From IMG/VR virus record IMGVR_UViG_3300013099_000017, positions 32,001 to 96,000 of that record: 64,000 nucleotides of DNA, one strand, 5' to 3'. The DNA is from a virus. This document shows positions 27,323 through 32,175 of the stretch, piece after piece (position 1 is the stretch's first letter; each line of letters starts with the position of its first letter). The notes beneath the pieces were generated by a model. It saw only the letters and a program-made list of their open reading frames with translations. It ran no database searches and had not been told where the DNA came from. The position numbers and the translations under genes were made by a program.

Positions 27323-27402
27323 ACGCTTGTAGCTCAGTCCGGAATTAGAGCAGGGTGCTTCTAACGCCCGTGTCGAGGGTTCAAATCCCCCCTAGCGTAC
27401 CA
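27323..27402 (+). tRNA. tRNA-Arg(TCT)
   Basis: Cloverleaf: ACGCTTG/CTAGCGT acceptor, GCTC/GAGC D stem, loop CT-TCT-AA, TTCAAAT T loop, encoded CCA. Confidence 0.9.
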
Positions 27403-27644: not shown

Positions 27645-28122
27645 GTTTATATTTATTAATTTACAAAAGTAGGAATTTACCTATACACAAATATGTTAAA
27701 GTGTGAGACAATTCACATATTGAAATAAAAAAAGAAAGGAAAATAAATCATGGCAAATTTTAAAGCTCGTTTTGATAATGATACTTTTTTGAATTTTGGA
27801 ACAGTTAATGAAATTGTGAAATCCAAATCAACCGCAGGTGTTTTTATTGAAAGTATTGAAATCAATCCCATTGAATGTGGGGTTTTAACTCCAATAACTT
27901 TTAAATTTCTGGCTTTATTTGAAACTTTAACTTTGGATATAATTAACCGTTTGGAACACGGTGAATTTGATACACTCTTAAATGAAATGGATAGTGTATA
28001 ACGAATATGATGGTCAGTATATAATGACATCATGTAAAATCATTTACACTAATGTAGATGGTTTAAGGGACTAACTTATAGGGTATGGATACCCACAAAC
28101 TTTAATATTAAGGAAATATAAA

Positions 28123-29205
28123 ATGAAAAATGTAATTTTAAGTGCAATTGTTGCACTAACGCTTGCCTCTGGTGTTGCGTTTGCTACTGGTTATGATTAT
28201 AGTGGTGGTGTTGTAGCTGGATCTCAGGGTTCAGGTGAAGCATCTTCGGGTGGTAATGGTCGAACAGGTGGAACGGTAACTCAATCCTCAACTTCTCAGG
28301 CGTATAATGAAACGGGTGCAACCGCTTCAAGTGTGAAAAACGGTGATAAAGTTGATGTGACTGCTACTACACGTTCTGCTGGTTTTACTGTACAATCTTC
28401 ACAAACTACTCAGCGTGGAAATGCTCAGGGGTCAACGGGATCGTTAGCTGTTCAAGGTGGTTCTGCTAATGCTAACGCTGATGGTAGTGTTCGTGATCGT
28501 GATGGTACTATTAGCTGGGATGGTAATTGGGGAACTGCTAACGCTTCGGGTGATGCTAGTGTATCGTCTAAGTCTGCTCAGGGTTCCGGTGGTTTAACAT
28601 TTTCTTCTGGAAATGGAAAATCTACATATGGTACTGATAGTTATGCAGGAAATGCATCTTATGCAGGTGTTGAAGTTGATGCTGATGCTTCTCGTAATGT
28701 GACAGGTGTGCAATTATCATCTTATGGTGAATCTTTTGGTGGTAATGGACAAATTGTTAATGGTACTCAGCGTGGTAATGCGTTTGGTGTAGCAGGGGCA
28801 ATTGGTGGTCAAGAAGGTTCTGCTCAGGGTAATGCTGGTGGTGGAATTGTATTTGGACAAGCTACTGGTTGGACAAGTGGTGTAGCAGGGGCAGGTCAAG
28901 CATCTAATGCTTCAAATGCTGATGTTAAATCTGGTGGTGTTGTATTTGGTGTTAATGGTGGTGATGCTCGCTCTATTACAAATACAGGCTCATGGAATGG
29001 TTCAAATTCCGGTGTAGTTGGTACTACAACTCCTGATAATAGCTTAACATCTGTTAATACATGGGGCAATGAAGGTGGCGGATCAAATTCCAACACTGTA
29101 AATCGTGATCGTGGCTTTGCAGGTGCAATTGGTGGTGGTAATGCTACTAATAGTGGTTATGGTAATGGTGTAGGTGGTTTCTCTACTTATGGTAATCCTC
29201 AGTAA
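28123..29205 (+). CDS. Secreted Gly/Ser/Asn/Thr-rich protein with three imperfect internal repeats
   Basis: Signal peptide MKNVILSAIVALTLASGVAFA; TQRGNAQG / TQRGNAFG / RDRGFAG; no Cys. Confidence 0.8.
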   Translation: MKNVILSAIVALTLASGVAFATGYDYSGGVVAGSQGSGEASSGGNGRTGGTVTQSSTSQAYNETGATASSVKNGDKVDVTATTRSAGFTVQSSQTTQRGNAQGSTGSLAVQGGSANANADGSVRDRDGTISWDGNWGTANASGDASVSSKSAQGSGGLTFSSGNGKSTYGTDSYAGNASYAGVEVDADASRNVTGVQLSSYGESFGGNGQIVNGTQRGNAFGVAGAIGGQEGSAQGNAGGGIVFGQATGWTSGVAGAGQASNASNADVKSGGVVFGVNGGDARSITNTGSWNGSNSGVVGTTTPDNSLTSVNTWGNEGGGSNSNTVNRDRGFAGAIGGGNATNSGYGNGVGGFSTYGNPQ

Positions 29206-29213
29206 AGGAAACT

Positions 29214-29253
29214 AATTTATTACACATCATTTAATCATGATGTGTAATAAATT
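29214..29253. repeat. 17-bp perfect intercistronic inverted repeat
   Basis: AATTTATTACACATCAT-TTAATC-ATGATGTGTAATAAATT. Confidence 0.9.
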
Positions 29254-29276
29254 TTAAACAACAAAGGAAATAAATT

Positions 29277-29900
29277 ATGAAAAAAATTATAGTGTTAATG
29301 ATATTAAGTATGTTCTTATTATCATCTAATGTTTTTGCAGATAATAACGGAAATCTTAATCGTGTCTCCGGTGAAACAACTTCTGCTAATGTACAGGGTG
29401 TTCAATCAGGATCATTATCAGGATCATATTTAGGTTTAGATCAATCTGATCATTCTACTACAACTATTGATGCAAGTGATTTAAGTAGAAGTGTACCAAG
29501 TGTATTTTCGGCAGGTGTTACGGCAGGTGGTTCAAATCCATGTATCGTTTCAGTTGGTGGTGGTGCTGGGTGGCAAGGTGCTGGATTTAACTTTGCAAGG
29601 GCTTATAATGATGGTGAATGTCAAGTTCGTGAAAGTTTACGTTTGATTGTTGCTATTTTGCCTAACACAAGTGATGTTGGTTCACAAATGTTAATTCGTG
29701 AAACAGCGTGTCAATCTGATATTTTTTGGCAGTCAATGGAGCGTGTTTATATTGCTACAAAAGATACCCGTTTTTTATGTACAACACCAAGACCAGAAAA
29801 TAAACCAATTGCTATTCGTGATCGTGTTCAGGAAGAAATTATCAGAACACAGGCTCCAAAAAGATCATTTGAATCTCAAAAAATCAACGATGTGTTTTAA
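29277..29900 (+). CDS. Secreted protein with four Cys
   Basis: Signal peptide ..LSSNVFA; PSVFSAG..NPCIVSVGGG..DGECQVRE..TACQ..FLC. Confidence 0.75.
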   Translation: MKKIIVLMILSMFLLSSNVFADNNGNLNRVSGETTSANVQGVQSGSLSGSYLGLDQSDHSTTTIDASDLSRSVPSVFSAGVTAGGSNPCIVSVGGGAGWQGAGFNFARAYNDGECQVRESLRLIVAILPNTSDVGSQMLIRETACQSDIFWQSMERVYIATKDTRFLCTTPRPENKPIAIRDRVQEEIIRTQAPKRSFESQKINDVF

Positions 29901-29912
29901 GGGGAAAATGAT

Positions 29913-30149
29913 ATGAAAAAAATATTAATAGCTTTATTTTTAATGTTCAGTTTCAATATTGTTAGTGCTTTGGAAGTTGAACCAGTTGATGAAAATCTTC
30001 CTGATACTGATACATCTGTATTAAAATCAAATGATATGGATGATCCGGTGTTTGGGTTAGGTGATAATTTACAGGGACCGAACTCCCATTTACAATATAA
30101 CACGATACCTGTTTCACAGGGTATGAAGGTTCAACAACCAAAGTTGTAA
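29913..30149 (+). CDS. Small secreted acidic protein
   Basis: Signal peptide MKKILIALFLMFSFNIVSA. Confidence 0.7.
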   Translation: MKKILIALFLMFSFNIVSALEVEPVDENLPDTDTSVLKSNDMDDPVFGLGDNLQGPNSHLQYNTIPVSQGMKVQQPKL

Positions 30150-30173
30150 GCGTGTTTGAAATTGTACGATAAT

Positions 30174-30203
30174 AAAAAACATCAAGTGATTGGTGTTTTT
30201 TTG
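30174..30203 (+). terminator. Rho-independent terminator closing the secreted-protein operon
   Basis: AAAAAACATCAA-GTGA-TTGGTGTTTTTT. Confidence 0.75.
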
Positions 30204-30206
30204 TTA

Positions 30207-30294
30207 ATATCCCATTGTGAGTATATACATTTATTAACTAATAAACGATACTATGCTTATCGTTTAAAGATAAATTTTCAAAAGGAAATAAATA
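30207..30294 (+). promoter_or_regulatory. Class A cassette
   Basis: ATATCCCATTGTGAGTATATACA; TATACA-17bp-GATACT; leader AGATAAATTTTCAAAAGGAAA. Confidence 0.8.
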
Positions 30295-31504: not shown

Positions 31505-31579
31505 GGGTCTGTAGTTCAACTGGTCAAACGTGCCACTCATAATGGCTTATTTCAGGTTCGAGTCCTGACAGACCTACCA
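31505..31579 (+). tRNA. tRNA with CAT anticodon (elongator Met or Ile2)
   Basis: GGGTCTG/CAGACCT acceptor, loop CT-CAT-AA, TTCGAGT T loop, CCA; lacks initiator G-C triplet. Confidence 0.88.
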
Positions 31580-31735: not shown

Positions 31736-31743
31736 TATAAATA
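31736..31743 (+). promoter_or_regulatory. T4 late-type promoter
   Basis: TATAAATA 27 nt before ATG 31771. Confidence 0.55.
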
Positions 31744-31770
31744 CAAGCATTATATAATAAAGGAAACGTA

Positions 31771-32175
31771 ATGAAAAATGTTTTAATAGCAATAGTATTT
31801 TTTGCAATAATGATTACTATTGGTCAAGTTCGTGCAGAGAGATCACCATTTAATGAAAATTATTATAATCGGATATGGTGTGCAGAAAAAGGTGGGGTTC
31901 CAGAATTCAGATTGGATGATGGTAAACGTGTTGATTGTTTGTTACCGGATTATGCAGTCGAAGCAGATTGGGCTAATTATAAAGCCTATGAATCAATTGG
32001 ACAAGCGTTACATTATGCAAAAGAAACTAACCGGAAGGTTGGTATATTGTTAATCATTAAAGATGAAGATGGTTTTAAATGGGTACAATTGGTATCAGAT
32101 AACCTTAAATATTATCACATACATAAAGCAAAGGTGTGGTATATTATTGCTAATGAGCGATTTACCTACAAATGA
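31771..32175 (+). CDS. Signal-peptide protein with PD-(D/E)xK-like nuclease motif
   Basis: Signal ..GQVRA; RVDC..YAVEADW..ESIGQALHY. Confidence 0.55.
   Translation: MKNVLIAIVFFAIMITIGQVRAERSPFNENYYNRIWCAEKGGVPEFRLDDGKRVDCLLPDYAVEADWANYKAYESIGQALHYAKETNRKVGILLIIKDEDGFKWVQLVSDNLKYYHIHKAKVWYIIANERFTYK

Follow-up and report, generated by a model that had tools for sequence, protein, structure and literature searches.

An accessory cassette of exported proteins is carried on several phage backbones and may form a wall-associated complex in the periplasm

A 64,000-nucleotide (nt) stretch of viral DNA, referred to here as the window, comprises bases 32001-96000 of the 144-kb IMG/VR record IMGVR_UViG_3300013099_000017 and contains a compact cassette of three consecutive plus-strand genes whose products are predicted to be exported. 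Comparison with related loci revealed that the cassette is a phage-borne mobile accessory unit in which genes 2 and 3 form the core and gene 1 is optional. The cassette is present in at least 20 loci of metagenomes and viruses, the majority of them from hydrothermal sediment of the Guaymas type, and resides on at least four phage backbones. The interpretation that we prefer, to which we assign a probability of roughly 40%, is that the cassette makes a wall-associated complex in the periplasm of the infected cell, where it would serve to exclude other phages or to protect the envelope. The elements of the cassette in the window are listed below, with lengths in nt, base pairs (bp) and amino acids (aa).

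28081..28094, plus strand: 5' leader palindrome GGGTAT-GG-ATACCC, located 28 nt upstream of the gene 1 start
28123..29205, plus strand: gene 1, encoding a predicted exported protein of 360 aa that is Cys-free, rich in Gly, Ser, Ala, Thr and Asn, and predicted to be all-beta
29214..29253, plus strand: intercistronic hairpin with a perfect 17-bp stem and a 6-nt loop, lacking a proper U-run
29277..29900, plus strand: gene 2, encoding a predicted exported protein of 207 aa whose N-terminal part is variable and of low complexity and is followed by a conserved domain of ~130 aa with four Cys
29913..30149, plus strand: gene 3, encoding a predicted exported 78-aa remnant of an OmpA/Pal-like peptidoglycan-binding protein
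30175..30203, plus strand: terminator-like stem-loop, ACATCA/TGGTGT followed by seven T

The mobility of the cassette is apparent from the DNA of 3 viral and 22 metagenomic loci (the two sets overlap in part, and individual loci are given here by L numbers) onto which the three protein families were mapped. Gene 3 lies directly after gene 2 in all 18 loci that have enough downstream DNA, and the two genes are separated by 3-17 nt wherever their open reading frames (ORFs) were mapped; in the window, gene 3 starts 12 nt past the gene 2 stop. A relative of gene 1 is found 5' of gene 2 in 10 loci (the window, L005, L007, L009-L013, L015 and L026). In five of the six mapped three-gene loci it lies 45-93 nt upstream of gene 2, across the hairpin, and the shorter gap of 29 nt in L011 results from a gene 2 ORF that starts at an upstream TTG. 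Gene 1 is absent from L018, L021, L023 and L027, among others, despite sufficient upstream DNA. A 133-aa exported protein rich in Gly, Ala and Ser occupies the place 5' of gene 2 in L006; it aligns with gene 1 over the signal peptide only, and by position and composition it counts as an analogue of gene 1 rather than as a demonstrated homologue.

The backbones that carry the cassette differ considerably. The window, L007, L011 and L015 are T4-like, the last of these with an Rnl1-type ligase, while L005 has an HK97-type portal and a protease-capsid fusion, L004/L006 a different terminase type and L018 a DnaE-type polymerase. A preliminary description of the window, made from the sequence alone, had treated the three genes as one operon whose synteny should be conserved, and the adjacency of genes 2 and 3, together with the recurrence of gene 1 on several backbones, agrees with that expectation. 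The cassette region of the window has a G+C content of 38.5% compared with 28%, an excess that comes from amino acid composition only. The G+C content at third codon positions (GC3) is 0.14-0.15 for genes 1 and 2, which equals that of the replication genes of the phage, and the codon usage of both genes is fully adapted to the phage. Because GC3 matches that of the replication genes, the cassette is not a recent foreign insert. Neither the GenBank phages nor the PLSDB plasmids contain a close DNA or protein match to the cassette, and we found no description in the literature of a three-gene arrangement with an OmpA-type partner and a conserved tail.

The three ORFs (28123-29205, 29277-29900 and 29913-30149) encode proteins of 360, 207 and 78 aa, respectively. 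By inspection, all three proteins begin with M-K-(K/N) and continue with a hydrophobic core of 12-16 residues and a small-x-small site, with cleavage expected at AFA-T, VFA-D and VSA-L for genes 1, 2 and 3, respectively (the hyphen marks the cut). Signal peptides are present throughout all three families, and inspection of the sequences and of the families marks all three products as predicted substrates of Sec and signal peptidase I. Inspection revealed neither a lipobox Cys nor a second hydrophobic segment in any of the three proteins. Genes 1 and 3 are Cys-free and gene 2 has its first Cys at residue 89, so none of the products qualifies as a bacterial lipoprotein. The preliminary description had these genes as three consecutive reading frames with Sec-type signal peptides that are closed by a terminator, and we find the genes and their signals as it gave them: the leader, the three genes and the terminator make up a self-contained transcription unit for exported proteins. 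The terminator of the window is weak by itself (a 6-bp stem followed by U7, z -1.6), yet it is the positional equivalent of the strong terminators, with a GC-rich stem and a U-run, that follow gene 3 in six of seven relatives (L005, L007, L011, L013, L015 and L018).

A Shine-Dalgarno sequence precedes the ATG of gene 1. The leader palindrome GGGTAT-GG-ATACCC is found at the aligned position 5' of gene 1 in L007, L011, L012 and L026, and both of its arms are altered in L015 (GTGAAT..ATTTCAC); the exact form occurs only once in the window. The palindrome may be a 5' hairpin in the RNA or a protein-binding site. The same four relatives carry TATAAATA, the T4 late-promoter consensus, ~100 nt upstream of gene 1. 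The window carries TATATAAT where those relatives have TATAAATA, and no exact TATAAATA is present near or upstream of gene 1 in the window, where the sequence is under-represented as a whole (13 occurrences observed versus 20.7 expected).

The 17-bp hairpin that the preliminary description placed between genes 1 and 2 is well supported, with a folding energy of -18.4 kcal/mol and a z-score of -6.7, and none of 200 shuffled sequences folds as well. A hairpin follows gene 1, or stands in the corresponding position, in all seven loci compared (the window, L005, L006, L007, L009, L011 and L015). The stems range from 7 to 17 bp, the sequences are unrelated and a clear U-run is present only in L015. 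That the position of the hairpin has been kept though its sequence differs fits differential expression of gene 1 versus genes 2 and 3. The earlier proposal that the hairpin sets the stoichiometry of a major and a minor product is therefore reasonable in so far as gene 1 would be in large excess over genes 2 and 3, and the hairpin more likely acts through stability of the message than through termination.

In its standard form, gene 3 probably connects the cassette to the cell wall. Its relatives are 148-173 aa long and have the OmpA family domain PF00691, with five of six scoring above the cut-off of 27.2 (29-43 bits) and the sixth scoring 25.5. They also match Pal/YiaD/YfiB-type NCBIfam models at the level of the domain, and they share with the OmpA/Pal-type proteins (PF00691; Pal, YiaD, YfiB and TpgA) the core ...TD.RGS..YN..L..RRA..V. 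The domain of TpgA or Pal ties a partner to the wall, and that of the gene 3 relatives would do likewise. Unlike these proteins, the gene 3 family has no lipobox, barrel or glycine-zipper part, and its invariant C-terminal tail is covered by no NCBIfam model.

Gene 3 of the window has no Pfam match, PF00691 included, and neither PF00691 nor any other OmpA gene was found anywhere in the 144-kb record. The protein aligns to positions 1-45 and 133-163 only of the family model. Judged by this alignment, it is the descendant of an OmpA-domain member whose domain was lost by in-frame deletion. The deletion encompasses ~87 residues and the entire wall-binding domain, while the signal peptide, ~25 residues after it and the tail have been retained. 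Among the complete copies of gene 3, 13 have the domain and the copy in the window is the only one seen without it. The preliminary description had characterized gene 3 as a short acidic protein, which is correct for the mature product (59 aa, pI 4.05) and misses its origin, since it is a remnant of an OmpA-like peptidoglycan binder and points to the periplasm. Of the nine columns that are invariant in the family, seven fall within the ~25-residue C-terminal tail, P-x-(F/Y)-G ... G-P-x-x-H-L-x-(Y/W)-x-T, one is the initiator Met and one is an Asp beside the deletion. A natural deletion of the anchor in which the invariant tail was kept singles out this tail, and it is the best candidate for contact with a partner. 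That partner would most naturally be gene 2, as genes 2 and 3 are always adjacent and tightly spaced. A complex prediction for gene 2 (residues 62-207) with mature gene 3, run without controls, gave a score of 0.00, which weighs neither for nor against a contact.

The relatives of gene 2 fall into 59 clusters, all of them metagenomic and without Pfam domains or informative names. An alignment of 26 relatives divides the protein into three parts: a variable head of ~40-170 residues that is rich in Gly, Ser, Asn, Gln and Ala; a domain of ~130 residues with 46 invariant columns; and a variable tail that often has Phe or Trp as the last residue. The four Cys noted in the preliminary description (C89, C115, C145 and C168) are among the invariant columns in these relatives. 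Within the cassette, four invariant Cys are a feature of gene 2 only, as expected of a disulfide-bonded protein outside the cytoplasm.

Several comparisons link gene 2 to PHROG 20531, a family of unknown function from Achromobacter and Ralstonia phages (JWAlpha gp25 AHC93978.1, JWDelta, phiRSL1 ORF070, RsoM2USA and RSP15 ORF122). The PHROG 20531 model, which retrieves JWAlpha gp25 at an E-value of 1e-157, matches gene 2 of the window at E 0.024 and 9 of the 26 relatives, the best of them at E 5e-5. In hhalign, the gene 2 profile aligned over 67 columns with a profile built from the end domains of three of these proteins (JWAlpha gp25, phiRSL1 ORF070 and RSP15 ORF122) at a probability of 90% and E 1.5e-6, and this alignment brought the first three Cys into register. 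Gene 2 also has the architecture of PHROG 20531, namely a signal peptide, a hypervariable region of varying length that is rich in Gly, Asn, Ser and Gln, and an end domain of ~110-130 aa with four Cys. The proteins of the cultured phages differ from gene 2 in that they are longer (304-361 aa) and end in a ...DPIVR.RLGLPPL tail that is absent from gene 2, and their genes stand alone and are annotated as 'hypothetical'. By these profile comparisons, gene 2 is only remotely related to PHROG 20531 and is not a plain member, and the family, which is uncharacterised, would extend through gene 2 to T4-like and other phages of vent sediment. The role of minor subunit that had been suggested for gene 2 is supported by no test.

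Other searches with gene 2 were negative or uninformative. One genome from each of 185,579 prokaryote species (GTDB) yielded zero matches, a tblastn search of 50,697 phage records yielded nothing, and the ESM Atlas yielded unnamed viral clusters only. The AlphaFold2 (AF2) model of gene 2 is poor, with a predicted local distance difference test (pLDDT) score of 48, and was unusable as a query for fold searches. Matches to Pfam YjbE (E 0.07) in two gene 2 relatives look compositional and were set aside. An 'AYNDG ... RES' stretch was considered as a lytic-transglycosylase motif and rejected, as the order of the elements is wrong and Pfam finds no such domain.

Gene 1 encodes a mature protein of ~339 aa (32.5 kDa, pI 4.6). 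As the preliminary description stated, the protein has zero Cys and is dominated by Gly, Ser, Ala, Thr and Asn (235 of 360 residues, 65%); aromatic residues number 23 of 360. Full-length relatives in L005, L007, L011, L012 and L015 are 359-369 aa long and 38-50% identical, and such a near-constant length at this level of identity suggests that the fold is defined and that the protein is not an open-ended repeat polymer. A HMMER search with a profile of six close relatives against 1.84 billion cluster representatives returned five strong full-length members (359-362 aa, including the protein of the window), one fragment and eleven weak matches (E 1e-12 to 8e-4), the latter all metagenomic and without names. 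The weak matches (P0035-P0045) are mostly exported proteins of 344-403 aa rich in Gly, Ser, Thr and Asn, with two shorter ones (129 and 231 aa); several have His-rich loops, and P0041 was found on 13 contigs, the largest of 42 kb.

Gene 1 had no match in Pfam, PHROGs, NCBIfam, PADLOC or the PDB sequences, and it matched zero families in Pfam-A at E<=1. When gene 1 and 17 relatives were searched against Pfam-A with hmmscan (E<=1 and E<=0.1), the only return was one weak lipoprotein-signal match in a single relative, and scans of viral and genome collections for distant gene 1-like proteins found none. Two leads in the ESM Atlas, an unnamed bacterial cluster (0.87) and an HfaD-carrying cluster (0.78), were below threshold and were not counted. 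By these searches, gene 1 is best regarded as the founder of a new family.

The preliminary description discerned three repeats of about 100 aa in gene 1, which holds in part. The middle and last thirds align at the profile level (hhalign E 7e-6, probability 84%), and the first and middle thirds align pairwise (z 5.7 versus shuffles) and only weakly at the profile level (E 0.06), while no alignment was obtained between the first third and the last (z 0). Internal repeats with a unit of ~110 aa are thus partly supported by the sequence comparisons. That gene 1 is beta-rich, as was also proposed, agrees with the all-beta AF2 prediction. Built from 18 sequences, the model is a meander of 11 antiparallel strands of 20-28 residues each, with a mean pLDDT of 74 and a predicted template modelling score of 0.67. 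The five AF2 models scored 74, 70, 56, 56 and 48, of which two are reasonably confident. Neither the PDB nor BFVD gave a clear superposition on the model (Foldseek template modelling (TM) score ~0.1 in both). With VIA-align the Z-scores did not exceed 6.7, and the matches of highest Z are outer-membrane barrels at a root-mean-square deviation (rmsd) of 12-16 Å. The only matches of low rmsd (2.0-3.0 Å over 122-126 residues) are to the near-flat walls of MACPF-type giant beta-pores. Averaged over the family, no predicted strand has a face whose hydrophobic fraction exceeds 0.40, and the family ends in ...GGFTTLP or ...YGNPQ, without an aromatic end residue. We read gene 1 as neither a classic membrane barrel nor a member of a described amyloid family, and on the model it is probably a polar extended beta-sheet protein that needs partners or self-association. 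Gene 1 ranks first among the 63 ORFs of the 144-kb record in its preference for codons that end in T, as measured for Gly, Ala, Thr and Ser (0.60 versus a mean of 0.43, standard deviation 0.08). This bias is a weak hint of high expression, the link between codons and expression not being established for this host.

A central question is what the three exported proteins do in the infected cell. One possibility, and the one that we favor, is that the cassette is a 'moron'-type accessory unit of tailed phages that infect Gram-negative hosts in hydrothermal sediment. It would be transcribed as one unit, from the leader palindrome into gene 1, through the hairpin, which would stabilise or partly terminate the gene 1 message, and on through genes 2 and 3 to the terminator. 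The three products would be exported by Sec, cut by signal peptidase I and, most likely, retained in the infected cell's periplasm. Gene 2 may fold there into a domain braced by two disulfides behind its variable head rich in Gly, Ser, Asn and Gln. A standard gene 3 product would bind peptidoglycan through its OmpA/Pal-type domain and hold a partner, most likely gene 2, with its invariant tail. Gene 1, in cassettes that have it, would be abundant and would fold as a polar sheet of long beta-hairpins, which probably associates with itself. Together, the proteins would form a wall-associated layer or complex that alters the envelope during infection, and its likeliest purpose would be the exclusion of phages that arrive later, or protection of the wall and the outer membrane up to lysis. 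In the window phage, the complex would no longer be tethered by gene 3, the wall-binding domain of which has been deleted in frame. A periplasmic, wall-associated complex is suggested by the export signals, by the restriction of invariant Cys to gene 2 and by the presence of a wall-binding partner, as well as by the lack of lipid anchors, the lack of an outer-membrane channel and a spread that is limited to phages.

The likeliest purpose is suggested by analogy with known phage proteins. T4 Spackle and Imm, T5 Llp, and lambda Bor and Lom are exported proteins that act in exclusion or in the envelope. The likeness of the cassette to these systems is one of function only, in that they are small, dispensable and mobile accessory genes, found in lytic or temperate phages, with products in the host envelope. 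The cassette differs in being a three-protein unit with a wall anchor. A profile search of PDB sequences revealed no similarity to solved structures, which would include Spackle if it is in the PDB copy that was searched. The preliminary description considered exported accessory proteins to be unexpected in a T4-like phage. They are not in themselves unexpected, as T4 encodes Spackle, Imm and RI.

Several observations weigh against a wall-associated complex with such a purpose. No homolog of known function supports any of the purposes considered, PHROG 20531 being itself listed as 'unknown function', and the AF2 model of gene 2 (pLDDT 48) is poor. The presence of TATAAATA ~100 nt upstream of gene 1 in L007, L011, L012 and L026 raises the possibility of late expression, which would suit exclusion less because the exclusion genes of T4 are early genes. 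Since the wall-binding domain has been lost in the window, either the tether provided by gene 3 can be dispensed with or the cassette of the window phage is in decay. In addition, the PHROG 20531 genes of cultured phages stand alone, without a gene 1-like or OmpA-like neighbor, which indicates that a three-part complex is not general to that family.

An alternative, put forward in the preliminary description, is an extracellular fibre or functional amyloid on the infected cell, with gene 1 as its major subunit, gene 2 as a minor subunit or nucleator and gene 3 as a helper. Gene 1 resembles the subunits of curli (CsgA/CsgB, CsgG/E/F) and Fap (FapC, FapF) in being a Sec-exported, Cys-free beta protein with imperfect repeats, rich in Gly, Ser and Asn and encoded beside smaller exported partners. 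The composition of gene 1, with its small and polar residues, and the predicted extended sheet of 11 long antiparallel strands keep the fibre idea alive. A lone sheet that best matches the near-flat walls of giant beta-pores should need partners or self-stacking, the conserved position of the hairpin and the top-ranked codon bias of gene 1 would both fit a major subunit, and the head of gene 2 is low in complexity and variable in length. The idea is weakened, however, by the lack of a family link, since gene 1 matches no Pfam family and hence neither curlin repeats nor another described amyloid family. The repeats of gene 1 are ~110 aa, rather than the ~20-35 aa of curli and Fap, and are detectable in part only; the predicted fold is a meander of long hairpins and not a solenoid; the length of gene 1 is constant, as expected of a defined fold; and only two of the five models are reasonably confident. 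Moreover, a fibre outside a Gram-negative cell would need a channel of the CsgG or FapF kind, and the cassette, which consists of three genes bounded by the leader and the terminator, encodes none, with genes 2 and 3 matching no such family. The partner that is encoded belongs to a family of peptidoglycan binders, which places the system in the periplasm rather than on the exterior. We therefore consider a cell-surface fibre unlikely. A related idea, which we hold to be just as unlikely, is that the sheets of gene 1 stack in a silk- or amyloid-like manner into an envelope material, with the head of gene 2 seeding or capping the stacks and gene 3 pinning them to peptidoglycan. If true, this would be an undescribed kind of phage-encoded matrix, periplasmic or, after lysis, extracellular, and one that is linked through gene 2 to the widespread and unstudied PHROG 20531 of proteobacterial phages.

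In a late role related to lysis, the cassette might act at the end of infection on the connection between the wall and the outer membrane so as to time lysis or complete it, or its products might be released at lysis onto neighboring cells or free virions. The copies of TATAAATA in the four relatives and the peptidoglycan-binding domain of the gene 3 relatives would suit this role, as would the location of the cassette in L005 and L004/L006 at a junction beside packaging genes, a frequent site of lysis genes and morons. However, no holin, endolysin or spanin was identified beside the cassette in any locus, the three proteins have no lipobox, membrane anchor or match to an enzyme family, and an exact TATAAATA is missing upstream of gene 1 in the window; we regard the lysis role as improbable. 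It is harder still to see gene 1 as an outer-membrane beta-barrel, porin- or channel-like, that genes 2 and 3 tie to the wall from the periplasm in the manner of an OmpA split across genes. An OmpA-like partner gene is indeed present, the matches of highest Z (5.8-6.7) are meander barrels of the outer membrane (CymA, autotransporter translocators and TonB-dependent receptors), and the top match in BFVD is a phage 'autotransporter beta-domain' protein. Nevertheless, none of these matches amounts to a convincing superposition at rmsd values of 12-16 Å and a Foldseek TM of ~0.1, no strand of gene 1 has a hydrophobic face, and aromatic residues are few (23 of 360). The family ends in ...TLP or ...GNPQ without an aromatic residue, and a C-terminal aromatic residue is typical of the assembly signals of outer-membrane barrels. 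These features leave the barrel very improbable. Finally, the low-complexity composition of gene 1, and a first word-based protein search that returned only gene 1 itself, could suggest that gene 1 is an open frame in compositionally odd DNA and that the genes line up as an operon by chance. Full-length relatives that agree with gene 1 in length, are 38-50% identical and have the same neighbors on different phage backbones refute this notion by their conservation, and the GC3 and codon choice, which match the phage, and the Shine-Dalgarno sequence before the ATG likewise speak for a real gene. The chance that gene 1 is spurious is accordingly negligible.

Phage genes that act on the envelope determine the entry of other phages, the time of the burst and the nature of the cell surface, and few of them are understood outside T4, T5 and lambda. 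The cassette described here is compact, clearly bounded and horizontally mobile, and it offers three separable exported parts: a recognisable wall anchor, a remote member of a family present in cultivable phages (JWAlpha and phiRSL1), and a new all-beta family. The link to PHROG 20531 makes the gene 2 family testable at the bench.

The window phage, which is uncultured and comes from deep-sea vent sediment, is of the T4 type and encodes a family B DNA polymerase, UvsX, thymidylate synthase, RNA ligase and DNA ligase, with a G+C content of 27-31%. The completeness of the 144-kb record is estimated at 79%. A Gp23-type major capsid protein (PF07068) had no match in the record, which is a fragment, and the control genomes likewise gave no match. 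The cassette proteins of the window are also found on a 207-kb contig. Nearly all relatives of the cassette come from one JGI metagenome set (Ga01643xx = 33000131xx), and a metagenome of this set, 3300013103, is given in papers as Guaymas Basin hydrothermal sediment. The accessory region that carries the cassette in the window is flanked by two tRNA genes, and the two-gene form of the cassette, as it occurs in phages with a DnaE-type polymerase, has a conserved 65-aa ORF immediately 5' of gene 2. The coordinates of these features are as follows.

Window 27323-27402: tRNA-Arg(TCT), flanking the accessory region on one side
Window 31505-31579: tRNA-Met(CAT), flanking the accessory region on the other side
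L018 938-1135, L021 114-311 and L023 1106-1303: 65-aa ORF before gene 2

The 65-aa protein is non-exported, has a basic tail and matches no PHROG. Two genes downstream of the cassette in the window, the ORF at 31771-32175 (134 aa) has a start that resembles a signal peptide and looks exported (region 31736-32175), and an exact TATAAATA lies 28 nt 5' of its ATG. Immediately past the cassette terminator, the window has TAATATCCCATTGTGAGTATATAC at 30205-30235, and a related CAATATCTCTTTGTGGGTATATACAAAGG hairpin is found at 7190-7225 in L007 and at 2717-2752 in L011. The TAATATCCCATTGTGAGTATATAC and CAATATCTCTTTGTGGGTATATACAAAGG elements look like the beginning of the next promoter cassette.

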